DNA from: an uncultured delta proteobacterium
GTDB taxonomy: Bacteria; Myxococcota_A; Polyangia; Polyangiales; Polyangiaceae
Assembly (NCBI GenBank): GCA_963696385.1
Contig: CAVOKF010000007.1
Location: 192,001 to 256,000 of the forward strand
Reading direction: 5' to 3'
DNA length: 64,000 nt
Both the position numbers and the translations under genes were made by a program. Positions 22,108 to 52,906 of the stretch are shown here, piece after piece (the first letter of the stretch is position 1; every line of letters begins with the position of its first letter). The notes beneath the pieces are model-generated. The model was not told where the DNA came from. It did no database searches and was given only the letters and a program-made list of their open reading frames with translations.

Positions 22108-22471
22108 CCGCCCATGCGGGCGAGCTCGGATGCCGTCGACTTGGAGATCCGAACGCCACCTGCCCATGATGCCTACTCGCCTTGCGGCCGCTCGTGGCCG
22201 CCGGCGACCTTTCATCCTCGTCTTGCGACCGTCCATCGGAAATGACGGGAGCCCGCGACGAAGCGGTGGGACAAAGGGCGCAAAGGAGTTCTCGCCATGT
22301 CCCGTCCCCGTCTCCTCGATGGGTCCGTCGGCGGCGGAGGCGCGGCGGTCGCCGGCGTGACGTTCTACCCGTTCGCGTCGTTCGAGCCTGCCGTGCGCGA
22401 GGCTGCGCGCTGAGTCACGCTCGCCCGTCCGAGCCCGTGACAGCGCTCGCGTCTTGCATCAGAGTGCGCCG

Positions 22472-24352: not shown

Positions 24353-24364
24353 CGGGACACACGC

Positions 24365-26677
24365 ATGATCATGAGGAGCATGCGAGGAAGTTTCACGCTC
24401 GCCGCCGCGGTCGCCGTCGGAGCGCTCGCGATGGGCTGGGCGCTCCGGCGGCCTCGGTCCCCGACCCCCGTCGGTGCCCCTCCGAATGATCCGGCGTACG
24501 CGACGGCCATTCAACCCGTCCTCGATCGCCGCTGTGTCCCTTGCCACGCTTGCTTCGACTCGCCTTGCCAGCTGACGATGCAGTCGTTCGAGGGCCTCGA
24601 TCGCGGCGGCAACAAGGCCGTCGTGTACCACCCCGAGCGCCCGGTTCAGGCCGCGCCGACGCGCATGTTCCAAGACGCACAGACCACGGCAGCGTGGCGG
24701 GAGCAGTTCGGATTCTTTCCGGTCGTCGATCGCGCGAGCCCCGAAGATCTCGGTCGCTCGATTCTGTGGCGCTTCGTGAAACAGCGCGTCGACGATCCCC
24801 GTGGGGGCTTCTTCGACGTCGACCACACGACAGCGTGCCCCAGCAGCGTTTCGGAGCTCGATCGCGAGCTCCACGATCACCCGGAGCGCGGGATGCCCTT
24901 CGGCCTTCCACCGCTCGATCCGAACGAGCGGGAGGCGCTCTCCGCGTGGCTGCGTCGCGGTGCGGGCGGGCTGCCGGGCCACCCCCCTGAAGACGAGGAG
25001 GCGAAGCGGGCCATGACCACGTGGGAGGCGTTCTTCAACGGAAGCGACCCGCGCTCGCCGCTCGTCTCGGCGTACCTCTTCGAGCACCTCTTCTACGCGC
25101 ACCTTTACTTCCCCGACGTGCCGGATCAGTGGTTCCGTCTCGTGCGATCGCGCACACCGAGCGGCGCGCCCATCGACGAGATCCCGACGAGACGCCCGTA
25201 CGACGACCCGGGCGCCGTACCCTTCTACTACCGCCTTCGGCGAATTCGGGAGACGCTTGTGCTCAAGACGCACGCCCCCTACGCGCTGAGCGACGAGAAG
25301 CTCGCGCGCCTTCGCGCACTGTTCTACGACTCGCCGTGGGTGGGGCACGGGTCGTGGACGCTCGATCGAGCGAGCGGGAACCCCTTCGTGACCTTCGCGG
25401 CGATTCCGACACGCGCGCGATACCAGTTTCTCCTCGACGACGCGCACTACCACGTGCAGACGTTCATTCACGGCCCCGTGTGCCGAGGACAAGCAGCACT
25501 CGACGTCATCGACGAGCACTTTCTCATCTTCTTTCTCACGCCAGAGAGCGATCCGGCGATCACGGACCCTGGGTACCTCGCGCAGATCGCCCCCGATCTC
25601 GAGCTGCCCGCCGAGAAGGGGCAGAGCATTGCCGCCTTGTCGCCCGGCTTCGATGCGAAGGAGCTCCGATACCTGCGCGCCGAGGTACCCCACGCGCGGC
25701 CTCGGACGCTCGCCGACGTGTGGCATGGGGATGGCTCAAACCCCGACGCGGTCCTCACCGTCTTTCGTCACTACGACAACGCGTTCGTGCTGCGCGGCGC
25801 CGTCGGGGGCATGCCGAAGACGGCGTGGGTGCTCGACTACCCGACGTTCGAGCGCATGTACTACGACCTCGTCGCGGGCTTCGACGTGTACGGCAACGTG
25901 ACCCACCAAGTGGCCACGCGCCAGTACATGAACTACCTGCGCATCGAGGCCGAGGGGCAGTTCTTGCGACTTCTGCCGGCGAGCGAGCGCGATCGCGTCT
26001 TCGGTGAGTGGTACCGGGGGCGCGTCGCGCGCACGCTCGGCGGCATCCACGAACGGGCCGGCGCGGGGCCCGAGACGGCCATCGCGTTCGCCGACCGCGC
26101 GCGTGCGAAAGAGGGGCTCGTCACGTTGCTGCTGACGAAGGAGCTGCCGGCGGCCGTCGTCGGTCCGCGCGAGCCGATCCAGTGGCCCGACGCGGCCTTG
26201 GCGAGCGACCCGCTCCGCGCGCGCTTCGAGCGTGCGATGCGCGACGTCGCCGGGAAGCCAGGGCCCAGTGTCGCGCCCTTTCCCGATACGGCGCTGCTTC
26301 GCGTAAAGGGCGCGAGCCAGGAGGACCTCGTGTACACGATCGCGCGAAACCGCTCGCACACCAGCGTCGAGTACATCTTCGCCGAAGGGGTCGAGCTCAA
26401 GCCCTCGGAAGACACGCTCCAGATCGTGAGCGGCATCGCGTCGAGCCGGCCGAACCTGCTGCTCGTCGTAGACGAGCTGGATCTCGACGCATTCGTCGCA
26501 GCGTGGAAGGCGCTCCGGCCGGGCGACGGAACCTGGGGCCGATTCGTCGCACGATGGGGTGCGCGACGGAGTGATCCGGCGTTCTGGAGTGCGTTCGACT
26601 TCTTCACCGCAGCAGCGCGCGCGCTCGATCCCATCGGCGCCGCCGTGTTGGACCTGTCCCGCTACGTCAATGACTGA
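24365..26677 (+). CDS. cti: Fatty acid cis/trans isomerase
   Basis: Heme motif CVPCHAC, PTRMFQDA, YLFEHLF, FRLVRSRTP, TRRPYDDPG, GPVCRGQ, LTVFRHYDNA, LVAGFDVYGN, LDLSRY. Confidence 0.93.
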   Translation: MIMRSMRGSFTLAAAVAVGALAMGWALRRPRSPTPVGAPPNDPAYATAIQPVLDRRCVPCHACFDSPCQLTMQSFEGLDRGGNKAVVYHPERPVQAAPTRMFQDAQTTAAWREQFGFFPVVDRASPEDLGRSILWRFVKQRVDDPRGGFFDVDHTTACPSSVSELDRELHDHPERGMPFGLPPLDPNEREALSAWLRRGAGGLPGHPPEDEEAKRAMTTWEAFFNGSDPRSPLVSAYLFEHLFYAHLYFPDVPDQWFRLVRSRTPSGAPIDEIPTRRPYDDPGAVPFYYRLRRIRETLVLKTHAPYALSDEKLARLRALFYDSPWVGHGSWTLDRASGNPFVTFAAIPTRARYQFLLDDAHYHVQTFIHGPVCRGQAALDVIDEHFLIFFLTPESDPAITDPGYLAQIAPDLELPAEKGQSIAALSPGFDAKELRYLRAEVPHARPRTLADVWHGDGSNPDAVLTVFRHYDNAFVLRGAVGGMPKTAWVLDYPTFERMYYDLVAGFDVYGNVTHQVATRQYMNYLRIEAEGQFLRLLPASERDRVFGEWYRGRVARTLGGIHERAGAGPETAIAFADRARAKEGLVTLLLTKELPAAVVGPREPIQWPDAALASDPLRARFERAMRDVAGKPGPSVAPFPDTALLRVKGASQEDLVYTIARNRSHTSVEYIFAEGVELKPSEDTLQIVSGIASSRPNLLLVVDELDLDAFVAAWKALRPGDGTWGRFVARWGARRSDPAFWSAFDFFTAAARALDPIGAAVLDLSRYVND

Positions 26678-33502: not shown

Positions 33503-33924
33503 ACGGGCTTTGAACAGACGCAGCGTCTTGGCTAGTTTGCCGATCCGCCGAAAATTCGCTGCGGGGGACAGCGCTGTATTCGCGCACGGTGTTCGCCGTC
33601 GTGGCCTTACTCGCCGCCGCAGGGGCCGACTGTTTCGCTCGCGACGGTCGTTGCACACACCGAGACCGCCTTGCTCCGACACGCACTCACCGTGCTGCAC
33701 CGGTCGGTCACCCGACCGCACGTGACGGGGCTCGACGGATCGTCCTAGCGGCACCCGCCGCCATCACGCCCACACGTTATCCTTGGAACGGCGAAGCGAT
33801 TGGAGCGTGTCGGCCGACGAGAGCCGAAACCGCGCCGTTGGGTGCCTGCCTAACGGCCGAGTGGTTACCAACCGCGTGAACGGATGGGAATGTTGCGCGA
33901 GAGCAAGTCGCAGGAGACGGACGG

Positions 33925-35844: not shown

Positions 35845-36636
35845 GTGCGCATGTCCAGGGACTTCTCCACGATCTCGCCTTCGGCGAAGTCGCTGCTCAT
35901 GGTGAAAGCGCAGACGTCGCTGCCCTTCGCGCGCCAAGCCGCCGAGCTTCTCTGCGGCGCAAGCGCCGTGGAGCAGGCCGCGCGCGAGATGGCCTCGACC
36001 CCCTGGGGCGTCGGCAGGACGCACCACTTCGAACGGCGTGCTCGGAGCATCGATGCAGCCATCGAGGGGCTCGGCTCGACGCGCATCTTGGAACTCGCCG
36101 CCGGCCTCTCCTTTCGCGGGCTGGACATGGCTGCACGGCGCGACCCCGTGTTCTACGTGGACACGGACCTGCCCGAGATGATCGCGATGAAGACGGACCT
36201 CGTGCGGCGCCTGCATCCTGAACCGCTTCGGGGCACGCTCCTCGTGAAACCGTTGAACGCGCTTGATGCGGACGCGTTCCGCGCGTGCGTCGACCTGCTG
36301 CCCGCCGGCCCCATCGCCGTCGTGCAGGAGGGGTTGCTCATGTACCTCGACGACGCGGAGAAGGCAGCACTCGCGGGACATGTGCGGGCGGCTCTGCTTG
36401 CATGCGGTGGCTCGTGGGTCACCGCCGACGTGTACGTGCGCAGCGCGGTTCAGCCGCAGCGAGACGAACGCGCCGCCAAGTTCCTGGAAGCGCATAAGGT
36501 CGAGGAGAAGAAGTTCGGCGACTTCGCAGCCGCGAGCACATTCTTCCAGGCGAACGGATTTGCGGTCCTCCAGCGTCTCGCGCCGGCAGCCGACCCATGG
36601 CCAGTTCGCCAGACGTGGGTGCTCGAAGCGAGGTAG
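35845..36636 (+). CDS. Class I SAM-dependent methyltransferase (LCM-like)
   Basis: ILELAAGLS, YVDTDLP, EGLLMYL, WVTAD. Confidence 0.85.
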   Translation: MRMSRDFSTISPSAKSLLMVKAQTSLPFARQAAELLCGASAVEQAAREMASTPWGVGRTHHFERRARSIDAAIEGLGSTRILELAAGLSFRGLDMAARRDPVFYVDTDLPEMIAMKTDLVRRLHPEPLRGTLLVKPLNALDADAFRACVDLLPAGPIAVVQEGLLMYLDDAEKAALAGHVRAALLACGGSWVTADVYVRSAVQPQRDERAAKFLEAHKVEEKKFGDFAAASTFFQANGFAVLQRLAPAADPWPVRQTWVLEAR

Positions 36637-36798
36637 CGGCCGGCCGCGCAGCGCATTGGGGGCGTTCGTTGCTCTCGCGGGGGACACCTTCCACGCTTCA
36701 GCGTGCAAGGCTCAAATCGGTTCGCCGTTTTAGCTTTAGCGACAACGAGGTACAGGCCCACCCCATCGCTTCGGGATGCCACCTGCTAGCCTTCTTGA

Positions 36799-37644
36799 AT
36801 GCGTCTTGCCCTTTCCTTCTTTGCGGCAGCCGCCGTGCTTGCGGGGTGCTCGGCCTCGCCCGGCCCGCCGGCCGAGACCGATTGCAACCCGCTCGCAACA
36901 CACCCCACCACGCTGGCGACGATCTTGGGCGTGGGCAAGGATCAAGGCGGCACGCTGTATGCGGCGGATCAAGGCGGGGTCGCCGCCGAGCCATCCATTG
37001 TCCGGGTGTTCGTAGCGAATGCGGGTTCGCTCGTCCGTCAGGACGTGATTGGGGCTGGCTCCATCGGGAGCAGCGAGGATATCGAGACATTCGAGAGCCC
37101 GGACGATTTGACACCACCACGGGATCTCGCCATTCAAATCGCAGGCGACAAAGCCACGTCCATGACGCTCGGCCCCGAGGGCTCCGCCAAGGCTGACCTC
37201 GAAGGAATCGACGCAGGTGCAGCCATGGCACTCACCCTCGTCGCCGACGACGCCGTGCAGGGGCTACCCGCGATTGATTTGCCGGGGGCCGTGAGCTATG
37301 TCGCGGACGCCGCCGATGGGGAGGCCATCGTCGTGACGGCCCCGCTGGAAAACGATCTCGGGAGCGCGGCGTTCCATCTTTTCTACGGAACGCCGGGCGC
37401 CATGGTTGAGCGACGCATCGTAGATTTCGACCAGTCGCTCAGTGGCTATCCAACGATACGGTTCGCCGTCGGATCCCAGACCTACGTAATGGCCATCTCG
37501 TCGGTTCCCTTCGACGGTGGCTTCGGGGAGGCCCCCGGGCCCGTAACCCTCGTCACCGGCGACGGCGGCGGCGTCACATTCACCCTGCGCCTGCCGACGC
37601 CAACGACTCTCGCCAGCTTCACCTTCACCTGCCTCGAGAACTAG
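36799..37644 (+). CDS. Hypothetical lipoprotein
   Basis: Lipobox LAGC; 281 aa with natural codon bias. Confidence 0.75.
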   Translation: MRLALSFFAAAAVLAGCSASPGPPAETDCNPLATHPTTLATILGVGKDQGGTLYAADQGGVAAEPSIVRVFVANAGSLVRQDVIGAGSIGSSEDIETFESPDDLTPPRDLAIQIAGDKATSMTLGPEGSAKADLEGIDAGAAMALTLVADDAVQGLPAIDLPGAVSYVADAADGEAIVVTAPLENDLGSAAFHLFYGTPGAMVERRIVDFDQSLSGYPTIRFAVGSQTYVMAISSVPFDGGFGEAPGPVTLVTGDGGGVTFTLRLPTPTTLASFTFTCLEN

Positions 37645-37711
37645 TGAGCGTGGTGATCCGAGAGTGAGCTTCTTGTACGTTCTCGGGCGGTAAGGACGGG
37701 CGCCAGCGGCA

Positions 37712-40711
37712 ATGACCCCTTCGCAATGGCCCTCCGGTCCGCTCCACCCGGCTCAGCGTCGCTACCTCGCCGAGGACCTCATGCGGCGCCGGCGTTCCGA
37801 CGAACAGCGGCGGTACGCTGCGCCGCAGCGCGCGGCGAAGATCGACGCGAACCCGCACCAGGTCGCAGCCGTCATCTTTGCTCTCGCGCGCGTTCGCGAA
37901 GGGGGCTGCATTTTGGCCGACGAGGTCGGGCTCGGTAAGACGATCGAAGCGGGTCTCGTCATCGCCCAGCTCCTCGCCGAAGGCGCCCGTCGCGTCCTCT
38001 TGGTCGCGCCCAAGCCGCTTCTCGGGCAGTGGGGGCAGGAACTGTTCCAGCTCTTCGACATCCAGGTGCGAGAAGGACAGGCGCGGCCGGGCGGGTTCGA
38101 CGGGGATGGAGTATTTCTGGTGGGCCGCGAGACCGCCGGCAGCGAGAGAGGACGCGACGCTTTACTGGCCGCCGAGCCTTTCGATCTGTGCGTCATCGAC
38201 GAGGCACACGAGATCTTTGCCGGAGTCTACAAGCGCTTCGACAAGTTCGGCGCGTACGTCGACGATGCCCTTCAGGCCCGAACGGCCGGGCGCGTGCGCG
38301 AGACCCTGCTTGCGTCACGCACGCCCGTCCTGCTGCTGACGGCGACCCCGATTCAGAACAGCCTGACGGAACTCTGGGGACTCATTCAATACGTGGATCC
38401 CCTGGGAACCCTGCTCGGAGATCTGCCGACCTTCCGGGCCGTTTTCTGCGGGGCCGACGATCGCCACCTCGCTCCGGGCCAGGAGCAAGAGCTGAGAAGT
38501 CGGATCCGCGGGGTCCTGCAGAGGACCTTGCGCCGTCAGGCGCAGGATTTTCTCGAGAAACCGTTCGTCAGTCGGGAGGCGCGGTTGTTCGAGTACGCGA
38601 TGAGTCCGAGAGAGCGCGGACTCTACGACGACGTGACCCGCTATCTCTTGCAGCCCGGGATCCTGGCGTTCGAGGGGAGCCACCGGCAGCTGCTGCTTCT
38701 TGGGTTTCACCGACGGATGGCGTCGTCCACGCGGGCGCTCGCGGCGAGTCTCGAGCGCGTTGCGGCTCGCCTTCGCCGGATGCTCGCAGGTGACGACACC
38801 CCGAGCGGAGCCGACGAGGATCTTCGCAGTGTGGTCGCCGACCTGGAGGGCGAAGACCTCGACATTCGGGACGAAATCTCGGCGAGCCCGAGCGACGTGG
38901 ACTCGAGAACGCGCGCTCCGGACCCGGAAGCGGTCCGTCAGGAACTGCACCGCGTCGAGAGCTTCATCGAGCGCGCCCAGTCGCTCGAGGGCGAAGACAG
39001 CAAGTTTCGAGCTCTCCTCCAAGCGTTGCACTTCGTGACCGAGCGAGCCGAGAAGGGTCAAGGCACCGCCAAGATCGTCATCTTCACCGAGTCGCTCGTC
39101 ACCCAGGACTACTTGCGCACTCGTCTGATGGAAAGCCGTTTGGTCACCGATGCCGAGATCACCCTGTTCCGGGGCACCAACGACTCCAAACGCGCGCAGG
39201 CCGCGCTCGAGCGATGGCGCCAGGAGGTTCCGCAAGACGAAGGACTCCATCCAAGCCTCGACATCGCGACGCGGCTCGCGCTCGTGCACGAATTCAAGAC
39301 GCGCCCGAAGGGCGTCTTCATCTCGACCGAGGCGGGCGGCAAGGGACTGAACCTGCAGTTCTGCGACACGATCGTGAACTACGATTTGCCGTGGAACCCT
39401 CAGCGCATCGAGCAGCGGATCGGCCGCTGTCACCGCTACGGACAGCAGAGCGGCGTGACGGTCATCAATTTCCTCGCCAAGGACAACGAAGCGCAGCGGC
39501 TCACGTTCGAAATTCTCAGCCAGAAGCTCGAACTGTTCGGCACCGTGCTCGACGCGTCCGACCAGGTGCTGCACCGGTCCGACGCGGCTCGGGGCGAAGT
39601 GCTCGTCAGCGCGCTCGGCGCCGAATTCGAAGCGGAGTTGCGTCGGATCTACGAGCGGGCCCGGTCGCTCGACGAGGTCGCGGCGGAGCTCCGTGCGCTG
39701 CGCGACCGAGTGGCTGAAGAGCGCCGGCGCTTCGAGGAGACGCACGATCGCACCGCCAGCCTCATCGAGGAGCATCTCGACGAGGATCTGCGGCGGGTTT
39801 TCCGTTCGCACAAGCAGGACTTGCCTCGCGCCCTTGCGGATCTCGACCGACATCTGCTGACGGTCGTGCTCGGGTATCTCGACAGCACGTCGATTGCCTA
39901 CGAGCGCGTGAAGCTTGGCGAGGACGATCTGTTGCGCATCGGGCCGGATCCGAGTCTACCGAGCGACTTGTGCGAGGGAATCACCGCGGCCGTCGGCGCT
40001 TCGAAGGAACACGCCTCGCTGCACCTGCGCCACCCCCTGGTCGTCGCCGCCGTGGCCGAGGCGCGTGCATCGACGTCGCCGATGGCGGCGACCGTCGCTT
40101 TGGCCCGCGGCGCGCCGCAGGCTTTGCGCCGGCTTGCGGGCAAACGCGCGCGGCTGCGACTCGTCAAGGTGTCCTTCGATGGCTTCGAGTCCATCGAGCA
40201 GCTCGTGCCGGTCGTCGTACTGGAGGGCGGCGAAAGGATCGGCGTCGCCGAGGGCGACGCGTTGCTGCGAGCGAGCATGCGGGAATCCGTCGTGGCCAAC
40301 CTCTCGATCGAAGAAGACATGGTCGCGGATGCGACCGACGAAACGCTCTTCGATCTTCTCTCGTCGGTCGACGCCGCGGAGCACGGGCGATTCGAAGGCG
40401 CGCAGCGGCAGGCCGAGCGCTTTCTCGACGATCGGCTCCTGGTGCTGCGCAGACGCCGGGGGATTCTCGCGGAACGGCTCAGGGAGGCGAAGCGCAAGCG
40501 AGACGGTGCGACCGGGTCCGAATCGCGGTCGGAGGCAGAAGTCGCTCTCGCGGCCGCCGAGGTCGCGCTCGAAGAGGTCGAGGCCGCGATCGATCGGCTC
40601 GAGCAGCATGACGACGACACGTTTCGAGCGTTCCAAGAACACATCCATCAGCGCCGCTATTCGCAGCCGCGCGTGGACCACCTTTTCGATCTCGATCTGG
40701 TGATCGAATGA
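37712..40711 (+). CDS. SNF2-family helicase/translocase with C-terminal coiled coil
   Basis: ANPHQ, ADEVGLGKT, VIDEAH, LLTATP, IFTES, GLNLQF, NYDLPWNPQRIEQRIGRCHRYGQ. Confidence 0.95.
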   Translation: MTPSQWPSGPLHPAQRRYLAEDLMRRRRSDEQRRYAAPQRAAKIDANPHQVAAVIFALARVREGGCILADEVGLGKTIEAGLVIAQLLAEGARRVLLVAPKPLLGQWGQELFQLFDIQVREGQARPGGFDGDGVFLVGRETAGSERGRDALLAAEPFDLCVIDEAHEIFAGVYKRFDKFGAYVDDALQARTAGRVRETLLASRTPVLLLTATPIQNSLTELWGLIQYVDPLGTLLGDLPTFRAVFCGADDRHLAPGQEQELRSRIRGVLQRTLRRQAQDFLEKPFVSREARLFEYAMSPRERGLYDDVTRYLLQPGILAFEGSHRQLLLLGFHRRMASSTRALAASLERVAARLRRMLAGDDTPSGADEDLRSVVADLEGEDLDIRDEISASPSDVDSRTRAPDPEAVRQELHRVESFIERAQSLEGEDSKFRALLQALHFVTERAEKGQGTAKIVIFTESLVTQDYLRTRLMESRLVTDAEITLFRGTNDSKRAQAALERWRQEVPQDEGLHPSLDIATRLALVHEFKTRPKGVFISTEAGGKGLNLQFCDTIVNYDLPWNPQRIEQRIGRCHRYGQQSGVTVINFLAKDNEAQRLTFEILSQKLELFGTVLDASDQVLHRSDAARGEVLVSALGAEFEAELRRIYERARSLDEVAAELRALRDRVAEERRRFEETHDRTASLIEEHLDEDLRRVFRSHKQDLPRALADLDRHLLTVVLGYLDSTSIAYERVKLGEDDLLRIGPDPSLPSDLCEGITAAVGASKEHASLHLRHPLVVAAVAEARASTSPMAATVALARGAPQALRRLAGKRARLRLVKVSFDGFESIEQLVPVVVLEGGERIGVAEGDALLRASMRESVVANLSIEEDMVADATDETLFDLLSSVDAAEHGRFEGAQRQAERFLDDRLLVLRRRRGILAERLREAKRKRDGATGSESRSEAEVALAAAEVALEEVEAAIDRLEQHDDDTFRAFQEHIHQRRYSQPRVDHLFDLDLVIE

Positions 40712-41868
40712 CCGGCGGCGGGGAGGACGACATCGTGCTGAAGCTTCTTCACACTGCAGACTGGCATCTGGGCAGGCGGTTCCGCAGCTTCCGGGAGGAC
40801 CAGGCCATCAAGCTTTCGAGGGCCCGGCTCGATGTTCTCGACCGAATTTTCCTTGCGGCCGAGCGCTCCGCGGTCGACGCTGTGCTTTGCGCCGGCGACC
40901 TGTTCGACGAGCCCAACCCGGAGCCGGAGTGGTGGGAGCAGGTCGCGCTGCGGCTGGAAAAGCGCAAGTGGGACCATCGTCCCGTGTTTCTCTTGCCCGG
41001 CAACCACGATCCGCTCGTTGCCGACTCGGTCTGGGCCAAGGAGGCCTTTCGCAAGCGTCTGCCCGAATGGGTCCACATCGTCGACCGGGAGGACTTCGAG
41101 TTTCCGCTTTCGAATCGCGCCGTGCTCTACGCGGTGCCCTGCGCATCCCCGGCTGGGGCGCGCGACCCGACCCAGTCCATCCCCCAACGCGCGCCCGGCG
41201 ACGATCGCATCCGGATCGGCATGGTGCACGGCAGCACGTTCGACGCGAACGACTGGCAGCGCAATTTCCCGATCGCGGCCGATGCGGTGCTGTCCCGCGG
41301 TCTGGACTATCTCGCGATTGGCGACACGCACGGATTTCGGTTCGTTCCGCCCGACCGAAAGCATCCCCCGACGATCTACCCGGGCACCCCGGAGCCAACC
41401 GCTTTCGACGAGAAGGATCCGGGCTCGGTCGCCGTGGTCTTCATCAACCGGCAGCGGCTCGCCACGGTGCGGGCCGAACGCGTCGCGCGCTGGACGTGGG
41501 AGGAGGTATGGGTGCGCTCGCCCGCCGAAATGCGCGCTCTCGGCAAGCGAACGGATTTGGCGGATCGGGTCCTCCGGCTCCGCGTCGAAATGCGGGTGTC
41601 GGCGCCCGAGTACGAGGAGATGGAGCGGCTCTTCGAGGATCTTCAGGGAACGATCGCCAGGAGCGGCACAGTCGGCGTTTTGGACCTCGATCGGCAAGGC
41701 CTCGAGCTCGAGACGGCAGACGTCGAACGCTACTGCGACGACCTGCCGGACGTCCTGCAGTCGACGGTGCGAAGGCTCAAGATCGCGGCCGACGACCCGC
41801 TGCAGCGGTCGGTCGCGCAGCGTGCGCTTTATCACCTCTACCGGGTCTCTCGGAAGAAGGCCTCCTGA
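40708..41868 (+). CDS. Mre11/SbcD-like metallophosphoesterase nuclease
   Basis: LHTADWHLG, AGDLFD, LPGNHD, MVHGS, YLAIGDTH, YPGTPE. Confidence 0.93.
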   Translation: MTGGGEDDIVLKLLHTADWHLGRRFRSFREDQAIKLSRARLDVLDRIFLAAERSAVDAVLCAGDLFDEPNPEPEWWEQVALRLEKRKWDHRPVFLLPGNHDPLVADSVWAKEAFRKRLPEWVHIVDREDFEFPLSNRAVLYAVPCASPAGARDPTQSIPQRAPGDDRIRIGMVHGSTFDANDWQRNFPIAADAVLSRGLDYLAIGDTHGFRFVPPDRKHPPTIYPGTPEPTAFDEKDPGSVAVVFINRQRLATVRAERVARWTWEEVWVRSPAEMRALGKRTDLADRVLRLRVEMRVSAPEYEEMERLFEDLQGTIARSGTVGVLDLDRQGLELETADVERYCDDLPDVLQSTVRRLKIAADDPLQRSVAQRALYHLYRVSRKKAS

Positions 41869-44800
41869 TGCGCTTCATCCGGCTCGTCGTCGAGGCATTT
41901 CGGGCCATCGAGCACGCGGAGGTCCACTTGGGTGCCGGCTTGAACGTGCTCTATGGGCCGAACGATCTCGGCAAGTCGACGCTGGCGGCCGCCCTCCGTG
42001 CGGCGCTGCTCGTGCGCCCGGACGCCGCGGAGGCAACCCAATTCCACTCGTGGTTCACCGACGCGACTCCTCGGGTCGCGCTCTCGTTCGTGACCGGAGA
42101 CGACCGTTACTGGACCGTCCGCAAGGGCTTCGGCGACGGGTCGACCAAGGCCGCCGAGCTTCTGTCCTCGAAGGACGGATCGTCCTTCGTCTTCGAATGC
42201 CGCGGACGGGAGGTCGAGGAGCGCCTTCGCGCTCTGCTCGGGTGGGGAATCCCGGCGCCGGGCGGCAAGGCCGGGCCCCGAGGGGTCCCGATCACGTTCC
42301 TCGAAAACGCGCTTCTCGCGGCACAGACCGACGTCGATTCGATTTTGGCAGCCAGTCTTGCCACGGACCCGGATCCGACCGGCAAGATCCGCTTGTCCAA
42401 GGCTCTCGCCACGCTCGCGCAAGATCCGCTGTTCAAGAAGGTGCTCGACGCCGCTCAGCGCGAGGTGGAGGAGTGCTTCACGCGCACGGGCCAACGCAGC
42501 CGCGCCCAGACATCCCGGTTCACCAAGACGGCGAATGTCATCCATACGCTGCAGGGCGAGCTCGAGGATCGGCAGCGCCGCGTCGCGGACTCGGCCGCCA
42601 TCGAAGAGCGGGTGCGGTTGCTTCGTGAACGACGCGATCGGGCCGAGCTAGGCTTGGCGGAACGTGCCGCCGCCCTTTCGGCCGTGCGCGATCGGCTCAA
42701 GCGTTCGCAGGACCGACAAGAGCTCGCGGCGCGCCTCGAGGCGGCCAAGACTGCGCTCTCGGAGATCGACAGCGAGGCCGCGACGGTCGGCGCCCTCGAC
42801 GCCGAGATCGAAAGACTCGCCAAGCAGGTGAAGTCTCGCGAAGAAGATCGGACGCGTACGACGCGCGACCTGGAGATCGCAACCGCCGCCGTTCGCGACG
42901 CGCAGGAGCGACTCCGGGTGGCGACGAGCGAGGGTGCGGCCCGCCAACGAGAGCTCTTGCGATCGCAACTCGCGGAGCAGGCTGCCGTTGTCGGCGCGGA
43001 TCGGCAAGCCGCCGAGAACCGAAAGGCGAGCCTCCTCGCGGCACTCCAGGCGATCGACGCGGCCCGGCGAGATCGAGATGCGGCCGCCAGCGCGCGCACG
43101 GAGCGGGACCGGTTTCTCGCACGTCTCGAAGCCGCGCGCGCGTCGCTTTTGGCAATCGACCAAGAGCTCGAGCTCGCACGAGCGACGCTCGCGTACGGAC
43201 GGTTGCGTGCCGCCCTGTCGGCGGCGGACGAGGCGGCCAAAGCGAAGAAAGCCGCTGCCAACGGTACTCGCGAGGCCGAGCAGAAAATGGCGCAAGCGGC
43301 GTCCTTCGACGAGCACGCGCGCGCGATGGAGGTCGATCTCGCGGCCCGACAGCGGGTGTTGCCGACCGGGGATCAGGCCACGGCGCTCGCAGCCATGGAA
43401 CGGCAGCTCGAGGTGGCGGAAGCGGCTCTCGGCGGCGGCGTGAGCGTCGTCCTGCGGCCCCGCAAGGCCGTGACCGTGCAGGCCCGCGTCGACGACGAGG
43501 GGGCCGTCGACCCCGTCGACCTCGCCATCGAACGGACGCTCGAGGCCGAGCGCAGCGTGCACCTCTCGGTCGCCGATCTCGTCGACATCGAGGTCACGGC
43601 GGGCGCGGCGGACCAGCGACGAGCCGTCGACAAGCTTCGCCTTCGACGCAAAAAGGAGCTTGTCCCGGTACTCCAACGAGCCGGACTCAACACGTTGCAC
43701 GACGTCGCAACCGCCCTCGGCGCCATGGCGAAAGATCATGCAACGGCCGAGGCAATCCGGAAAAAGGCGGCGGATCTTCGCAACGACGCGGCGAAGCTTC
43801 TCGAGCGTGCCGAGGAGCAGACCGAGCAGGCCGCGAGGCTCTCGAGCCGCGCCGACGGGCTCGAGGCTCGCAAAGCCGCACTGGGCAAGACAGCCCCGGC
43901 GGTTTTGGAGCAGCGGTTGGCCGCGCTCGGGACACACTGGGAGGCGCCGGCCGAGGCGCTGCACGCGAAACGTTCGAACGAGCAACGCACGGCAGCGGCA
44001 GCGACGCGAACGGCCGAGCAGGACGCCGAGCGGGCCGAGTACCAGGTCGCGGAGGCGGATCGGCGAACCGCGGAACGGGTCGCAAGGTCCGAAGCGGCCT
44101 TGGCGACCGCCCAATCCTCGGACCCCGGGCCTTTACTCGCTCGGATCGAGCGGGAGCTCGAATCGTTCGGCAAGCGCGAAGCGGATATCGCGGCGAAGCG
44201 CCAGGCGCTGGAGACGGCTCCGAACGACGATGTCGACCAAGCCGAGCGGGCGATTGCGGCCGCCGAGCACAGTCTGGCTGCGGCGAAGCCGGCGCACGAT
44301 GACGCCGTGCAGGCGGTCGAAACGTCGAGAGCGGAATGCAACACGCGAACGGGGGAGGCCAATCTCCGTCGCCTCCGACTCCATGGCATGGACCGGGCTG
44401 CCGCCGCGGCGCTCGTCGAGCAGCGTACACGCGAGTGGGCGGCGCTGCCGGTCGAGAAGAATGTGTCCGAGGCCGACGTCGTGGCGGCCGAGCAAGACGC
44501 AGCGGCCGCGAACCGGGAACTCGATTCGGCGAAAGAGGAACTCTACAAGAGCGAGGGCGCTCTGACCAAGGTCGGTGGCAACACGGTGCGCGAAGATTTG
44601 GAGCGAATCCAGGAAGCCCTTACCGCCGAATTCGCTCGGCAGCGGGAGATGGAGACCGATGCCGATGCGTGGAAGCTGCTCCGCGACACCCTGCGCGATG
44701 TCGAAGATGACGAGGGCGCCCACCTCGGACGTGCACTCGCAGGACCCGTGTCGAAAAAGTTCGAGGAATTGACGGCGGGCCGTTACCGGGATCTCCGGCT

Positions 44801-45209
44801 CGATGCGGCACTCAAGACGGAGGCGCTGGGTCTGAGTGAGTCGTCTGCGACGGGTGCGGACGTCCTTTCGGCGCTCTCGGTCGGCACACGCCATCAACTC
44901 GCGACGCTCATTCGCCTCACCGTCGCGGCGCAGTTGAAAAGCGCGATCGTGCTCGACGATCACCTGGTCCACACCGACCCGGTGCGACTCGCATGGTTTC
45001 AGGACGTGTTGATGAAGACCGCGCTGAATACGCAGGTCGTGGTTCTCACCTGCCGGCCGGAGGATTACCTCACAACGGATGACCTCGCCGGGGAAGGCAC
45101 CGAACGCGACATCGCCGGAGGTGCGGTGCGGGTCATCGACGGGGCTCGCGTGATCCAGCGCTGGGCGGACGTGTCTTCGCGATCGTCGCGCCCACTGCCC
45201 GTCGAGTGA
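41868..45209 (+). CDS. Rad50/SbcC-like (YhaN-type) SMC ABC ATPase
   Basis: TGATG-coupled start at 41868; Walker A GPNDLGKST, long coiled coils, signature LSVGTRHQ, Walker B IVLDD, QVVVLTC. Confidence 0.92.
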   Translation: MRFIRLVVEAFRAIEHAEVHLGAGLNVLYGPNDLGKSTLAAALRAALLVRPDAAEATQFHSWFTDATPRVALSFVTGDDRYWTVRKGFGDGSTKAAELLSSKDGSSFVFECRGREVEERLRALLGWGIPAPGGKAGPRGVPITFLENALLAAQTDVDSILAASLATDPDPTGKIRLSKALATLAQDPLFKKVLDAAQREVEECFTRTGQRSRAQTSRFTKTANVIHTLQGELEDRQRRVADSAAIEERVRLLRERRDRAELGLAERAAALSAVRDRLKRSQDRQELAARLEAAKTALSEIDSEAATVGALDAEIERLAKQVKSREEDRTRTTRDLEIATAAVRDAQERLRVATSEGAARQRELLRSQLAEQAAVVGADRQAAENRKASLLAALQAIDAARRDRDAAASARTERDRFLARLEAARASLLAIDQELELARATLAYGRLRAALSAADEAAKAKKAAANGTREAEQKMAQAASFDEHARAMEVDLAARQRVLPTGDQATALAAMERQLEVAEAALGGGVSVVLRPRKAVTVQARVDDEGAVDPVDLAIERTLEAERSVHLSVADLVDIEVTAGAADQRRAVDKLRLRRKKELVPVLQRAGLNTLHDVATALGAMAKDHATAEAIRKKAADLRNDAAKLLERAEEQTEQAARLSSRADGLEARKAALGKTAPAVLEQRLAALGTHWEAPAEALHAKRSNEQRTAAAATRTAEQDAERAEYQVAEADRRTAERVARSEAALATAQSSDPGPLLARIERELESFGKREADIAAKRQALETAPNDDVDQAERAIAAAEHSLAAAKPAHDDAVQAVETSRAECNTRTGEANLRRLRLHGMDRAAAAALVEQRTREWAALPVEKNVSEADVVAAEQDAAAANRELDSAKEELYKSEGALTKVGGNTVREDLERIQEALTAEFARQREMETDADAWKLLRDTLRDVEDDEGAHLGRALAGPVSKKFEELTAGRYRDLRLDAALKTEALGLSESSATGADVLSALSVGTRHQLATLIRLTVAAQLKSAIVLDDHLVHTDPVRLAWFQDVLMKTALNTQVVVLTCRPEDYLTTDDLAGEGTERDIAGGAVRVIDGARVIQRWADVSSRSSRPLPVE

Positions 45210-45304
45210 CGCTCGCAGGTCACTCGGCTACAGAAAGCCAATCTCGGCGAACAGCATGCCGGGGCCGTATGCAGACGCCCCGAGCTCCGCGGTATGGTGT
45301 GACG

Positions 45305-46141
45305 ATGGATGAGACCGCCGACCCGATCGCGTATTGGAACGGACCCGCGGGCGAGCGTTGGGCGCGCGAGCAAGAAGCGATCGATCGAGCTTTTGCGGCG
45401 TTCAGCGCCAAGCTCTTCGATCGCGCGACGCTGCGCCCGGGCGCTCGTGTCCTCGACGTGGGCTGCGGATGCGGGACGACTACGCTCGCCGCGGCCGACG
45501 CGGTGGGACCGGGGGGCGCGGTCGTGGGAATCGACGTGTCGACGCCGATGGTGGCACGAGCGCGCGAACGCTCGACCGGGCGGCCGAACGTTTCGTACGT
45601 CTTGGCCGACGCAGCCGAGCATGGATTCGAGACTCCGTTCGACGCCATCGTGTCGCGTTTCGGAGTGATGTTCTTCCGGCGCCCGGTACCGGCCTTCCGG
45701 CGGATGCGCGAAGCGCTGCGATCGGGCGGCACCCTGGCGTTCGTGTGCTGGCGCGCGGCGAACGAAAACGAATGGGTTCGCGTTGCCCGGGACTCCGTCG
45801 ACTTGCTTCTTCCTGCCGAACCCGCCGAATCGGCGGATGAGCCGGGGCCATTCGCGTTCGCAGACTCTGGCCGCGTGGCGGCAATCCTCGACGAAGCGTC
45901 ATTTACGAACGTCGCAGTCGTTGCCTTCGACGCCGATGTCGTCCTTTCGCAGCAGGGGCTTGGTGAAGCCGCGCGCTTCGCCATGACTACGGGGCCGACG
46001 GCGCGCCGGTTGCGGGACGCCGACGATGACACGAAGGCCCGGGTCCGCGTGGCGCTCGAGGCGCGATTGCGGCCTTTCGTCAGGGGCGAGCGCATCGCCC
46101 TGCGCGGCTCGGTCTGGGTGGTGAGCGCCACGAGAAGCTGA
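45305..46141 (+). CDS. Class I SAM-dependent methyltransferase
   Basis: YWNGPAGERW, VLDVGCGCG, SRFGVMFF, PGPFAFAD. Confidence 0.9.
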   Translation: MDETADPIAYWNGPAGERWAREQEAIDRAFAAFSAKLFDRATLRPGARVLDVGCGCGTTTLAAADAVGPGGAVVGIDVSTPMVARARERSTGRPNVSYVLADAAEHGFETPFDAIVSRFGVMFFRRPVPAFRRMREALRSGGTLAFVCWRAANENEWVRVARDSVDLLLPAEPAESADEPGPFAFADSGRVAAILDEASFTNVAVVAFDADVVLSQQGLGEAARFAMTTGPTARRLRDADDDTKARVRVALEARLRPFVRGERIALRGSVWVVSATRS

Positions 46142-46286
46142 CTCGCCCGAGAGATTCGGAAAGCCACCGGGACGAGGATGCCCCAGGGGCTCTCGCGGGC
46201 TAGGACGCCGCGTCCCGCCGAGTCGCTGAAATGACGGAAATGCGCGCATTATCCATGCGGCACAGGCCATGCACTGAACTCCACGC

Positions 46287-46610
46287 ATGAACGCCTTTCA
46301 AGGATCTCGCGCCTTACGTTCCGGCTTCGTCGCGGCCATGCTGTTTTTTGCCCTTTGGATGGGGGCCCCGCGGACTGCGGCCGCTCAAGTCATCGACGTC
46401 GCGCCGCCAGCCCTCCGCCTGGAGGTCGCCCCTCTTCGCCCTTCCCCGAATCACTTTTGGATCCCCGGCTATTGGGGATGGGGACCGCGCGGTCACGTGT
46501 GGTACGGAGGGCGCTGGGAGCTCGAGCGACGCGGCAGCCATTGGGCGGCTGCTCGTTGGACTCACGAGGGTCGACGATGGCATTTTTCTCCCGGGCGCTT
46601 TCGACGGTAA
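46287..46610 (+). CDS. YXWGXW-repeat secreted protein
   Basis: Signal peptide, APPALRLE, FWIPGYWGW, VWYGGRW, HWAAARW. Confidence 0.82.
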   Translation: MNAFQGSRALRSGFVAAMLFFALWMGAPRTAAAQVIDVAPPALRLEVAPLRPSPNHFWIPGYWGWGPRGHVWYGGRWELERRGSHWAAARWTHEGRRWHFSPGRFRR

Positions 46611-46722
46611 AAGCTCCCGGCGCGCAAGCGGGGCGGGCCCCGCCGGGCCACCGGCGGCTCGATCTGCGCGGTGAGCTCTTTGGGACGCCTCCGGACACTG
46701 GGGTGGCCCAAGGAGAAGCCCT

Positions 46723-50244: not shown

Positions 50245-50352
50245 TGTAGACGGACGCGTAAATCCGCGGGAAAGGCGACGTGGAAGCAGTGCGCGGCCGA
50301 TCCCGGCGCTACCTCCTGAGGAAGGCGGCGCCGGGCAGCGGACGAGAATGGC

Positions 50353-50646
50353 TCAGCGAGGGAGGGGCTTGTCGTGGTGGTTGTGGTCACGCCCGTCGAC
50401 GACGTTCTGCTCGGCGAGTCGATATTGGCGGATATGCCTGCGTAAAGCGCGCATGGCATTGAGGAGGTCGCGAGTGGGGGGATGATTGGCGCCGCCGCGT
50501 GTCGACGAGGAGGGGTCGGGGCCGATGGCGAGAAAGCGGCGAGCCGCGATGAGTGCAGCGTCGAGCACGAAGAGCGGACCGAGTTCGGGCGCCAAGACGA
50601 TGTCCCACTCGGAGGGCGCAACGAGCCGCTGGCGCGGCGGCGTCAC
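50353..50646 (-). CDS. IS accessory ORF downstream of istB (97 aa, helical)
   Basis: GTGA overlap with the istB stop; APELGPLFVLDAALIAARRFL...LRRHIRQYR. Confidence 0.65.
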   Translation of the reverse strand: MTPPRQRLVAPSEWDIVLAPELGPLFVLDAALIAARRFLAIGPDPSSSTRGGANHPPTRDLLNAMRALRRHIRQYRLAEQNVVDGRDHNHHDKPLPR

Positions 50647-51428
50647 ACGCGCCTCCGGGCGGAGGCGCCTCGCGAGCGGGGCCTGGGTTGCGGAGGCGGT
50701 GGGGAGTTGCCCGGCTTTTGCCGGTAGGAGTCGGCATCGATGTCGATGGTGTGCAGATGCTGGGTGAAGCGATCGATGAGAGCGACGAGGCAGGCGGCGC
50801 CGGGGAATACGCCCCCCCATTCCTTGAAGGCCAAGTTGGTCGAGATGATGGTGGAGGCTCGTTCATGGCGCCGGCTGATGATCTGGAAGAAGAGGTCGAC
50901 GGCGCGCTTGTCTACGGGCACATATCCAAGTTCGTCGCATACGAGAAGATCGACATTGGTATAGCGCTTCATGCGTCGCTCGACGGCGGGCAGCGACTCC
51001 TGTTTCAAGAGATCGGCGAGCGCCGAAACGACCGGGGTAAAGCAGACGGTCATGCCGGCGCTGAGCGCGGCGAGGCATACGTTCTGCGCAAGCATGGTCT
51101 TACCCACACCGCTTGGGCCGCGAAAAAGGACGTTCTCGCGGCGCTCCACGAAGCCCAAGCCGAGGACATTCTCGCATAGGGCGCGGTCGATCTTGCGCGG
51201 ATGGCTCCAGTCGAAACGGTCCATCGTCGTGTGCGCCCCCACCGTCGCCATCTTGGTGCGGGTGGCGAGATTGCGTGCTTCACGCTGCCGGCGCTCCATT
51301 TCGACCAGCAGCTCGACGACCTGCACGTGCGAGAGGCGGTTGGCGGTCGCGTGCGACAGCAGTGCCTCGAGCTGCTCGCGCGACGCGCAGAAGCCGATGG
51401 CCCGGAGCTCGTCGACGACGTCGCTCAC
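50643..51428 (-). CDS. istB: IS21 helper AAA+ ATPase IstB
   Basis: GPSGVGKT, LLVCDELGY, STNLAFKEW, ALIDR, SYR. Confidence 0.96.
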   Translation of the reverse strand: MSDVVDELRAIGFCASREQLEALLSHATANRLSHVQVVELLVEMERRQREARNLATRTKMATVGAHTTMDRFDWSHPRKIDRALCENVLGLGFVERRENVLFRGPSGVGKTMLAQNVCLAALSAGMTVCFTPVVSALADLLKQESLPAVERRMKRYTNVDLLVCDELGYVPVDKRAVDLFFQIISRRHERASTIISTNLAFKEWGGVFPGAACLVALIDRFTQHLHTIDIDADSYRQKPGNSPPPPQPRPRSRGASARRRV

Positions 51429-52906
51429 GACTCACCCCGCTTTCGGTCGTAGGAACCGAGGTCGTGGGGCACCACGATGGCGTCGACGACGTGCGCGCCG
51501 AGCACGATATCCACCGGCATGGGCCGGTCGGTTCGCTGCCGCTCTTGCTCGCAGAGAAGGGCCAGCGCGCCGATGTCGTGCGTGCCGCGCTCGCCCATGA
51601 CGCGCACGGCGTAACCGAAGATCTCCAGCCCGTAGAGTGTGAAGAGCTTGCGCGCATGCCCGGTCATGAAGTTGATGTTTCGTCCCTGCTCGACCCAGCG
51701 TTCGTAAAGCACCGAGAGCTCGGGCACGGCGCCGAGCAGCTGGTCGCGTATCGTGATGGCCTCGGCTCGTGGCCGCCCCTCGCAGAGGGCGCGGCGATGC
51801 GCGGGGTCGTCGATGCGCTGACCGCGTCCCCACGAGCGTCGGTGGCGCGCCACCTCTTTCTCCCCATCGAGAAGCCGCACGTGATCGTCGTCCGCCACGA
51901 GCGTCAGCGTCGCGCTCGCGTACTTCGGCGGCGCCGAGTAGCGGTTGGTCCCGAGCCGTACGCTCGCCGTCTTGTCGACGGCGACAGGCAACACCAGGTC
52001 CGCCGTCGGCATCGGATTGGGCAGCGGCATCAGGCGCTCCTTCTCCTCGGCGAAGACCTCGCCCACGCTGCGGCTGGCGAGGGTTGGGTGGCGACGCGTC
52101 ATCACGACCGATTCGATGTGGCGCCGCAGGCCGAGGTTTCCTATCTCCAGACTCGGGATCGAACGGCCCGCGAAGAATCCTTCTTTGAGCTCGCGTATGG
52201 CTCTTTCGACTCCGCCCTTGTCTTCGGGCGTCCGCACGCGCGCGAGCACTGGTTTGACGCGAAGCTGTCCGGCGAGCTCGATGATCCCGGAGTGAAGCCG
52301 CGCGGCGCGACCATGGCGCTCGATCACGACGATCTTGGGGTTGTCGAAGAGAAGCTGCCGTGGCACGCCACCGAAGAAGCTCAGCGCGCGCAGGATCGAG
52401 CGCCGGAGCGATTCCGCCGTCATATCGAGCACCAACTCCGCGTACCGCATTCGCGAATACGCCAAAAGCATCACGAAGACCCAGAGCGCCCGCATCCCTC
52501 CCATGACGGAGAGCTGCCCCACGTGACCCCAGTCCACTTGCCCTTGCTCGCCCGGCAGGCGCTCGCAGACCAGGTACGCCTTGCTCGCCGCGCGCGGACG
52601 GATGCCTTTGACGAAGCGCTCGACGAGCTTTGCGCTGCCCCGAAACCCGCGCTCGGCGATCATCGTGCGCAGCCGCGTCGCGCGCAGCCGTGGATACCTC
52701 TCGATCTGCTCGAGGATGAAGCCCTTGTACGCGTCGAGCTTGCTCGGCCGAGGCTCGCGCGCGGGCTGTCCAGTGGCGTCCTGGGCGAGCACGCGCGTGA
52801 CGACGTCGTGGTGCACCCCCAGCTCGGCGGCCACCGTGCCTTCGGGCCACTTCTCGGCCTGCACGAGCCGAAGGATCTCGCTCTCGCACTCTTTGCTGAC
52901 TGTCAT
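51425..52906 (-). CDS. istA: IS21 transposase IstA
   Basis: HTH N-terminus, PSKLDAYK, DDE residues in QVDWG / FDNPK / KGGVE, TNRYSAP. Confidence 0.96.
   Translation of the reverse strand: MTVSKECESEILRLVQAEKWPEGTVAAELGVHHDVVTRVLAQDATGQPAREPRPSKLDAYKGFILEQIERYPRLRATRLRTMIAERGFRGSAKLVERFVKGIRPRAASKAYLVCERLPGEQGQVDWGHVGQLSVMGGMRALWVFVMLLAYSRMRYAELVLDMTAESLRRSILRALSFFGGVPRQLLFDNPKIVVIERHGRAARLHSGIIELAGQLRVKPVLARVRTPEDKGGVERAIRELKEGFFAGRSIPSLEIGNLGLRRHIESVVMTRRHPTLASRSVGEVFAEEKERLMPLPNPMPTADLVLPVAVDKTASVRLGTNRYSAPPKYASATLTLVADDDHVRLLDGEKEVARHRRSWGRGQRIDDPAHRRALCEGRPRAEAITIRDQLLGAVPELSVLYERWVEQGRNINFMTGHARKLFTLYGLEIFGYAVRVMGERGTHDIGALALLCEQERQRTDRPMPVDIVLGAHVVDAIVVPHDLGSYDRKRGES

Follow-up and report, generated by a model that had tools for sequence, protein, structure and literature searches.

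SbcCD/Mre11-Rad50 is the textbook DNA-end nuclease, and SNF2 ATPases are the standard example of remodellers that translocate on DNA; in eukaryotes, such remodellers have been reported to assist end resection. Here we describe a bacterial cassette in which proteins of both kinds are encoded by three translationally coupled genes. The cassette lies in a stretch of 64,000 nucleotides (the window), positions 192001 to 256000 of contig C7 in the genome of an uncultured delta proteobacterium (G000; 6.9 Mb, 66% GC, 8 contigs). Its products are an SNF2-family ATPase, an Mre11/SbcD-type metallophosphoesterase nuclease and a Rad50/SbcC-like ATP-binding cassette (ABC) ATPase with a long coiled coil. In the literature and database searches made here, no bacterial SNF2 protein turned up as the obligate partner of an SbcCD-type pair. 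The cassette appears to encode a variant of the Mre11/Rad50 type, set apart by its obligate SNF2 partner and by a novel apex.

Several described systems share parts with this trio. According to the abstract of PMC2811018, Bacillus subtilis SbcE (YhaN) resembles SbcC, has a unique central domain and takes part in break repair. Lamassu has been reported to sense viral DNA ends (significance statement of PMC12663957). Hma, as portrayed in the abstract of PMC11232893, comprises the methylase HmaB, the ATPase HmaC and HmaA, in which a PD-(D/E)xK nuclease is fused to a Snf2 helicase and which defends against T4. The titles of structure entries 6bog and 8t0l indicate that RapA acts on RNA polymerase as a translocating or stripping motor. 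A sequence-only reading of this DNA had been unable to match the trio to a named system, and the PADLOC models, the DrmD score and the literature leave it equally unmatched. An operon of SNF2, SbcD-like and SbcC-like genes was not found described in the full-text literature, where a published classification of ABC-ATPase conflict systems could already list it; a term search of the BREX-diversity paper PMC12839542 found neither SbcC nor Mre11.

All three genes are on the forward strand. The SNF2 gene runs from 37712 to 40711 (999 amino acids; ATG at 37712, TGA at 40709-40711), the nuclease gene from 40708 to 41868 (386 amino acids; ATG at 40708, TGA at 41866-41868) and the ATPase gene from 41868 to 45209 (1113 amino acids; ATG at 41868-41870, stop at 45207-45209). 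The SNF2 stop and the nuclease start are joined in an ATGA overlap (40708-40711, context gaATGAcc), and the nuclease stop and the ATPase start in a TGATG overlap (41866-41870, context ccTGATGcg) with the A common to both codons. Such junctions recur. The 4-nucleotide ATGA overlap is present in at least seven other loci (L015, L016, L020, L022, L024, L028 and L038), and a nuclease/ATPase overlap of 1 to 4 nucleotides in at least seven (L015, L022, L023, L027, L032, L033 and L035). Coupling through ATGA and TGATG, and the presence of the main catalytic motifs, had both been read from the letters alone; inspection of the open reading frames (ORFs) and junctions bears out the former, and the motifs are intact in all three proteins and show little or no variation across alignments of 18, 14 and 18 orthologues. 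GC content at third codon positions is 0.72-0.81 in the three ORFs, and the base composition of the trio is that of the rest of the window. A promoter scan of 36500-46500 gave no promoter-like site, the same interval holds eight terminator-like sites (6.5 expected), and an Rfam scan of 30000-52000 gave no match.

The trio is a strict unit. A nuclease pattern scan over one genome per species gave 582 relatives, of which 80 were kept; 19 of these (L020-L038) were counted as full-length orthologues, with 49-62% identity, and the others match the N-terminal SbcD motifs alone. By tblastn, an SNF2 gene lies directly upstream of the nuclease gene in 19 of 19 orthologue loci and an ATPase gene directly downstream in 18. 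The exception (L038, 9914-10627, in a Vicinamibacterales metagenome-assembled genome [MAG]) has an intact SNF2 gene and a nuclease gene that breaks off at about residue 153, followed by other ORFs and no ATPase gene. Gene order is identical in three loci within the genus (L014-L016) and in genomes G436 and G438. A search with the SNF2 protein in 400 genomes of the phylum was bimodal, with tallies that are lower bounds: at least seven genomes have orthologues (49-55% identity, at least 845 bits) and at least 29 further genomes have only paralogues (29-42% identity). Nuclease and ATPase genes follow the SNF2 gene in all six orthologue loci with downstream sequence (a seventh, L114, stops at a contig edge) and accompany none of the SNF2 paralogues at 22 loci. 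Co-occurrence of SNF2 with its partners is strict in both directions, and the doubt attached to the sequence-only reading, that the SNF2 gene might not be co-conserved, does not hold. The flanks of the other trio loci contain no conserved fourth gene. In a collection of 5.8 billion proteins, some single ORFs join nuclease and ATPase (P0123, 1510 amino acids; P0126-P0128) and others join SNF2 and nuclease (P0125, 1371 amino acids with both parts full length; P0129; P0131), and P0124 is a deletion fusion. Given gene overlaps of 1 to 4 nucleotides, sequencing frameshifts could account for some of these fused ORFs.

Source databases label the nuclease "DNA repair exonuclease SbcCD nuclease subunit," as would be expected if the three genes were unrelated neighbours or an ordinary SbcCD pair beside a helicase gene by chance. 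The strict two-way co-occurrence contradicts this explanation, however, as do the overlapping stop and start codons, an SbcD score under the cut-off, the lack of CxxC in all 14 ATPases and the patchy distribution described below. We consider it very improbable.

The nuclease matches Metallophos (1.1e-13) and the sbcd model TIGR00619 (3.3e-17). Its scores against the SbcD models are 63.1 bits for TIGR00619, against a cut-off of 77.65, and 41.3 bits for NF008206, against a cut-off of 450. The motif residues are D18/H20, D64, N99-H100, H174 and D206/H208, of which D18, H20, D64, N99, H100, H174 and H208 are invariant in 18 sequences. Motif V reads GDTH, where the usual form of this phosphoesterase motif is GHxH. 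With an 18-member nuclease profile, the best solved relatives are Thermotoga maritima Mre11/SbcD (6.5e-18) and Escherichia coli SbcD (8.7e-14), and archaeal and eukaryotic Mre11 are also found; the match to solved SbcD/Mre11 is confined to residues 11-103. The C-terminal part has nothing meaningful in Pfam at an E value of 1 or less, and the nuclease matches none of 5027 PADLOC v2 models.

The ATPase is of the AAA_23/SMC_N type (AAA_23, 6e-9). Its motifs are GPNDLGKST (30-38), LSVGT (1003-1007) and IVLDD (1027-1031), and the Walker A, signature, Walker B and D-loop motifs are conserved across the orthologues. Walker B has the form hhLDD, with DD and not DE, and the H-loop position reads TC[RH]P. 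By sequence, T. maritima Rad50 is the sole solved relative (E = 0.006, over residues 1-88). In the structural model (mean predicted local distance difference test score [pLDDT] of 74.1), a split head (1-215 and 976-1098) carries a coiled coil (217-520 and 581-969) of antiparallel arms of about 300 residues, and Foldseek matches this model to Smc5/6, MukB, JetC and Rad50. CxxC is absent from the whole length of all 14 orthologues; therefore, there is no zinc hook. The place of the Rad50 zinc hook or SMC hinge is occupied in the model by a six-strand beta domain at the coiled-coil apex (amino acids 525-577; 43440-43598, forward strand), as assigned from the secondary structure of the model. The hydrophobic pattern of this apex domain is kept in 14 orthologues, and its sequence has nothing meaningful in Pfam at an E value of 1 or less.

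The likeness to SbcCD/Mre11-Rad50 is that of a calcineurin-type phosphoesterase with Mre11 metal-ligand motifs, coupled translationally to an ABC ATPase with a split head and long antiparallel coiled coil; indeed, the best solved relatives by sequence and by fold are found there. Canonical SbcCD was nevertheless rejected. Although the metal-ligand and ABC head motifs do match, the nuclease lies below the SbcD cut-off and just its first ~100 residues align to solved SbcD/Mre11, while the ATPase has an apex beta domain in place of a CxxC hook, DD in Walker B and TC[RH]P at the H-loop position. Unlike SbcCD, the trio also has an obligatory SNF2 partner and an accessory, horizontally transferred distribution.

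A second comparison is with SbcE-SbcF (YhaN-YhaO), set beside the trio by description: this pair, too, combines a hook-less SbcC-like ATPase that has a distinct central domain with a Metallophos partner. Two-gene relatives that lack SNF2 (26-35% identity; ATPases of 680-891 amino acids) are present in G031, G033, a Methanobacteriaceae MAG and Faecousia. Relatives on plasmids include Rhizobium megaplasmids, and one record examined consists of a "DNA repair exonuclease" and an "AAA family ATPase" without SNF2. Several ATPases of the two-gene relatives, and fused forms, match AAA_27 (PF13514), which we take to be the YhaN-type family; the window ATPase has no match to it at an E value of 0.01 or less. 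The trio differs from SbcE-SbcF and the two-gene pairs in its SNF2 gene, which is specific to the trio clade. The trio is best viewed as a pair of the SbcE/SbcF kind that probably acquired a DrmD/RapA-like SNF2 gene.

The SNF2 protein matches SNF2-rel_dom (8.6e-21) and Helicase_C (1.9e-16), with an ATPase core at about amino acids 45-690 and a C-terminal domain at 695-999. Its motifs are GLGKT (73-77), DEAH (163-166) and QRIGRCHRYGQ (568-578). The best family models are those of DrmD, namely, PADLOC PDLC02619 (3.7e-117) and NCBIfam NF038318 (DISARM_DrmD_b; 4.7e-117, 392.2 bits), and further PADLOC matches are to BrxH (1.4e-57) and to HmaA (6.6e-48, helicase part alone). The protein is not a DrmD equivalog because its 392 bits fall below the NF038318 cut-off of 950; against NF038317 the score is 211.2 bits for a cut-off of 610. 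By structure, the nearest fold to the AlphaFold model (mean pLDDT of 75.9) is E. coli RapA, with Foldseek E values of 1.6e-24 to 3.2e-17 over about 1070-1096 columns. A VIA-align comparison with RapA entry 8spg (Z of 19.5, root mean square deviation of 9.2, 719 residues) pairs model residues 9-999 with chain residues 121-966. The VIA-align list consists mostly of SNF2-core matches, and RapA alone spans the C-terminal domain to residue 999. This RapA_C-like domain (39794-40708, forward strand) combines a beta-rich module with a long helical hairpin and ends in a strand. Its pLDDT in the model is 77-93, it has no Pfam match at an E value of 1 or less, and the nearest ESM Atlas clusters of amino acids 695-999 carry RapA_C (score of 0.95).

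RapA is, then, the sole solved structure aligning over the whole SNF2 protein, C-terminal domain included. It was rejected as an identity for the protein: the overall fold is common to both, but the score against NF003426 is 125.9 bits for a cut-off of 576 and the structural alignment begins at RapA residue 121. The trio protein lacks the N-terminal ~120 residues of RapA and has no Pfam RapA_C match, and the genes beside it encode a nuclease and an ATPase, not transcription proteins. Class 1 DISARM supplies the best family models through DrmD and was likewise rejected, since the DrmD cut-off is not reached and DrmA, DrmB and the methyltransferase are not in the locus; DrmC is also missing from the trio. 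Indeed, among 23 window ORFs and 124 flanking ORFs of 18 other loci, a PADLOC scan included, neither DrmA nor DrmB (DUF1998) nor a DNA methylase accompanies the trio. Hma was rejected because, against the Hma components given in that abstract of PMC11232893, the HmaA model covers the helicase part only and there is neither a fused nuclease domain nor a methylase. The trio nuclease is a separate Mre11-type protein, in contrast to the fused PD-(D/E)xK domain of Hma.

The same reading had stated that no DNA methyltransferase is adjacent to the trio. This stands for DNA methylases but needs qualification, as a class I S-adenosylmethionine methyltransferase gene without a match to a DNA-methylase family begins 95 nucleotides downstream (ATG at 45305, to 46141, forward strand; Methyltransf_25, 6.2e-19, and also Methyltransf_11). 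Its match to PADLOC mad2 (1.9e-25) is generic, and the gene is absent from all other trio loci examined. A start at the GTG of 45206 would place the methyltransferase frame across the ATPase stop, but the domain begins well 3' of the ATG at 45305.

The SNF2 type had been said to resemble those of DISARM and restriction-modification-linked loci, and this resemblance holds, both in the DrmD top models and in methylase-linked paralogues. An N6_N4 DNA methylase lies directly downstream of the nearest SNF2 paralogues in 5 of 14 loci (L115, L117, L118, L121 and L126); therefore, the SNF2 lineage is otherwise tied to modification-linked defence loci. The five loci themselves are DISARM class 1-like or Hma-like.

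Lamassu and Wadjet resemble the trio in coupling a long coiled-coil ABC ATPase to a nuclease, and JetC is among the fold matches of the ATPase. Among the PADLOC v2 matches of the ATPase listed (25 of 28), all are at the P-loop level. Those to LmuB are weak (best 2.7e-6, 24 bits, residues 14-98), LmuA and LmuC are absent and the nuclease has no PADLOC match; Lamassu was accordingly rejected. Wadjet was rejected as well, with no Jet model among the matches listed and JetC being a general SMC fold match; JetA, JetB and JetD are absent, and the trio nuclease belongs to Metallophos and not to the Toprim type of JetD. Both systems differ further from the trio in that the trio has an SNF2 motor and an Mre11-type nuclease that is probably the direct effector on DNA.

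The distribution of the cassette is patchy. It is present in 6 of 30 other genomes of the genus (G003, G007, G013, G014, G436 and G438; two unpublished genomes, G010 and G434, are included as non-carriers) and in at least 7 of 400 genomes of the phylum. The sequence-only reading had raised the matter of a separate housekeeping sbcCD. None of the 31 genus genomes has an SbcD match above the curated cut-off, and the seven best SbcD-family matches are the trio nucleases of G000 and the six carriers; on these counts, the trio does not appear to be a substitute for a housekeeping SbcCD. A second, weaker SbcD-like phosphoesterase occurs sporadically (in G008, G010, G013, G014, G017, G018, G020, G022 and G024 and not in G000), with 29-41 bits to TIGR00619 and frames mostly of about 530-570 amino acids (range, 254-756).

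Some copies are decayed. The trio of G438, an assembly that is 72% complete, is split across several reading frames. In G008, a remnant (L218, C2:348000-364000) is reduced to residues 1-93 of SNF2 and to pieces, broken by frameshifts, of ATPase residues 612-1113, with an IS66 transposase between the two parts, a second IS66 copy outside and a PIN-domain gene adjacent. Other comparisons bear on transfer. The flanking genes of the window are 89-91% identical in DNA in G003, where they are on other contigs; the G003 trio has 51-53% protein identity to that of the window and sits elsewhere among different genes. Homology between G000 and G436 covers only 37704-45150 of the window, that is, the three genes, whose proteins are 83% identical. 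The comparisons with G003 and G436 point to independent acquisition.

Orthologue hosts belong to the Myxococcota, Acidobacteriota, Gammaproteobacteria, Rokubacteria and Verrucomicrobiota. In a quick maximum-likelihood tree of 29 nuclease sequences (L038, L114, L218 and L221 were left out; support is given by the Shimodaira-Hasegawa-like approximate likelihood ratio test [SH-aLRT] only), a Chthoniobacterales sequence (Verrucomicrobiota) pairs with one from the Bryobacteraceae (Acidobacteriota) with support of 100 and branch lengths of 0.07-0.10. Two Gammaproteobacteria group with a Vicinamibacterales sequence (Acidobacteriota; support of 95), a Rokubacteria sequence pairs with one from the Bryobacteraceae (Acidobacteriota; support of 97), and the genus's own copies fall in at least two separate clades. 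A vertically inherited core repair locus, which the sequence-only reading had named among the findings that would undo it, is not what these patchy occurrences, cross-phylum sister pairs and decayed copies describe; the cassette is, rather, accessory and horizontally mobile.

The cassette family is common in soil, peat and wetland metagenomes. We found 2422 metagenome matches, in more than 120 protein clusters at 65% identity or more; clustering at 50% gave 517 representatives with an E value of 1e-30 or less, about 35 of them above 300 bits. Near-identical DNA is present in soil, peat and wetland runs of 14 studies, with no RNA run among those listed. Among 2.9 million viral contigs there was no orthologue, the 150 relatives being at best 23-47% identical over partial lengths, and among 72,556 plasmids there was none either, with 97 matching records that are all at 32.5% identity or less.

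The surroundings of the cassette were surveyed through the four nearest ORFs per side at 18 other loci (129 ORFs, of which 124 were compared with Pfam and 84 with PADLOC). A specific defence-family neighbour lies within four genes at 7 of 18 loci (L015, L022, L026, L029, L030, L035 and L036), or at 8 of 18 if a generic UvrD match (L037, UvrD with PD-(D/E)xK) is counted. These neighbours are a PDC-S37/Hhe-like superfamily 1 helicase with an MTES_1575 nuclease in L022, L036 and L015 (4.3e-54, 3.5e-68 and 8.5e-160, respectively), AbiV also in L015, a Ppl-like ATPase and a Schlafen-domain protein in L026, a type II restriction enzyme (2e-103) in L029, a PDC-M38A/AbiLi-like ATPase in L030, and an HmaA-like SNF2 protein with an HmaB-like methylase in L035. 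Enrichment in defence genes is suggestive only because these counts are raw, without a background comparison. In L023, a Ku gene lies three genes away.

The PDC-S37/Hhe-like gene, which encodes a large superfamily 1 helicase with DUF4011, AAA_11, AAA_12 and MTES_1575 nuclease domains, lies directly upstream of the SNF2 gene by tblastn in at least 5 of 33 trio loci (L015, 13265-17698; L016, 6542-8128; L221, 14104-18559; L022, 1402-6009; L036, 1541-6700), a lower bound, as many loci have short flanks. The five loci span two phyla, and the gene is on the same strand as SNF2 in three. This gene may encode an optional fourth component of the system or simply recur as a neighbour in defence islands.

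Genes of mobile elements are also found nearby: a TrwC relaxase, a type IV coupling protein and a VirB11-type ATPase adjoin L022, an integrase lies beside L034, an ISL3 transposase fragment beside L029, and in the window an IS21 element follows the trio at a distance of 5 kb. Counted together, neighbours related to defence or to mobile elements occur at roughly half of the loci, again as a raw count. The mobile-element genes would suit a cassette that is cargo serving a mobile element, by processing or protecting the DNA ends of the element or by countering host nucleases. However, conjugation genes are present at only 1 of the 18 loci and the plasmid and viral collections hold no orthologue. 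Moreover, the homology of G000 to G436 does not extend beyond the three genes into any element backbone, and flanking repeats were not found, the trio being surrounded merely by short, low-identity pairs. Service to a mobile element is, on this evidence, an improbable role.

The three products most likely work as a single nuclease machine, driven by ATP, whose targets would be DNA ends or unusual DNA structures. The ATPase dimer and the nuclease may make up a clamp of the SbcCD type whose binding to DNA ends depends on ATP and which recognises, and cuts at or near, free, hairpin or protein-blocked ends, with the apex beta domain presumably joining the two arms in lieu of a zinc hook. The SNF2 protein would be a double-strand DNA translocase or protein-stripping motor, either bringing the clamp to its substrate or clearing bound proteins for the nuclease. 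The likeliest role would then be methylation-independent restriction of incoming linear or replicating foreign DNA, and a circular chromosome without free ends would escape attack. We infer complex formation, substrate and immune role from the families to which the proteins belong.

Immunity is favoured by a distribution that is patchy, shaped by transfer and marked by decay, by the defence genes nearby and by the relatedness of the SNF2 protein to methylase-linked forms. A role of the cassette in immunity against foreign DNA is plausible, with about even chances. We are similarly divided over the composite proposal that the trio is one accessory mobile cassette, encoding a joint DNA-end nuclease machine with immunity against foreign DNA as its likeliest role, and we put the broader claim slightly short of even: that the trio represents a widespread, methylation-independent immunity family in which an SNF2 motor and a hook-less Rad50-Mre11 clamp destroy the DNA ends of phages or plasmids. 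Several observations weigh against immunity. SbcCD and SbcE, to which the trio is closest among characterised proteins, serve in repair. The count of seven or eight defence-neighbour loci in 18 is raw and, without a background comparison, suggestive at most, and at about half of the loci (e.g., L014, L024, L025, L031 and the window) the neighbours are metabolic genes or lack annotation; Ku stands three genes from the cassette in L023. Viral contigs and plasmids, where a mobile defence cassette might be expected, yielded no orthologue, and the single-ORF forms could be frameshift errors.

Some of these observations would fit an accessory module for double-strand-break repair or recombination, with end processing like that of SbcCD or SbcE. 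The SNF2 motor would then clear end-bound proteins, such as Ku or nucleoid proteins, or drive resection, and soil bacteria with large genomes and no canonical SbcCD would acquire the cassette horizontally. Mre11/SbcD and Rad50 are the closest solved relatives of the nuclease and ATPase, SbcD above the cut-off is found in none of the genus genomes, Ku is near the cassette in L023, and B. subtilis SbcE is an SbcC-like break-repair protein in the abstract of PMC2811018 mentioned above. In addition, the trio has no conserved companion gene, such as a methyltransferase, that would mark self DNA, and phage contigs and plasmids lack orthologues. Against a repair module, however, 24 of the 30 other genus genomes do without the cassette, which decays through insertion sequence (IS) insertion or truncation and moves across phyla; defence genes adjoin 7 of 18 loci, and the SNF2 lineage is otherwise methylase-linked. 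We regard repair as the main rival, a possible but rather unlikely role, and favour immunity as the working interpretation.

If the cassette is immune in function, it would be a new defence family that discriminates self from non-self by DNA ends or topology and not by methylation. The trio would also form an evolutionary bridge from SbcCD-type repair to SMC-based defence (Lamassu and Wadjet), in a family spread horizontally via at least five phyla of soil bacteria. Coupled, co-inherited and occasionally fused, the cassette would offer a compact bacterial model for a translocase helping an end-sensing clamp, and its hook-less apex domain is of structural interest for how Rad50-like arms join.

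In the window itself, the neighbours of the trio (23 ORFs) are glycoside hydrolases, small-molecule methyltransferases, unannotated ORFs and the IS21 element, and the upstream 281-amino-acid ORF does not recur in other trio loci. The IS21-family element (50643-52906, reverse strand) encodes an IstB of 261 amino acids and an IstA-type transposase of 493 amino acids, and its end (50245-50500) has copies that are 99-100% identical on C4, C5 and C7 of G000. A stretch of about 250 bp (33524-33773), with no Rfam match, recurs with 87% identity at three further positions on C7, as well as in several other genus genomes, and could be a miniature mobile element. An intergenic sequence of about 220 bp (46410-46629), also without an Rfam match, has copies that are 92% identical at C7:1433834-1434054 and C6:105424-105644 of G000. 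At 22454-26677 on the forward strand, a fused histidine kinase/receiver/LytTR protein (632 amino acids) is followed by a fatty acid cis/trans isomerase (770 amino acids; CTI, 9e-200).

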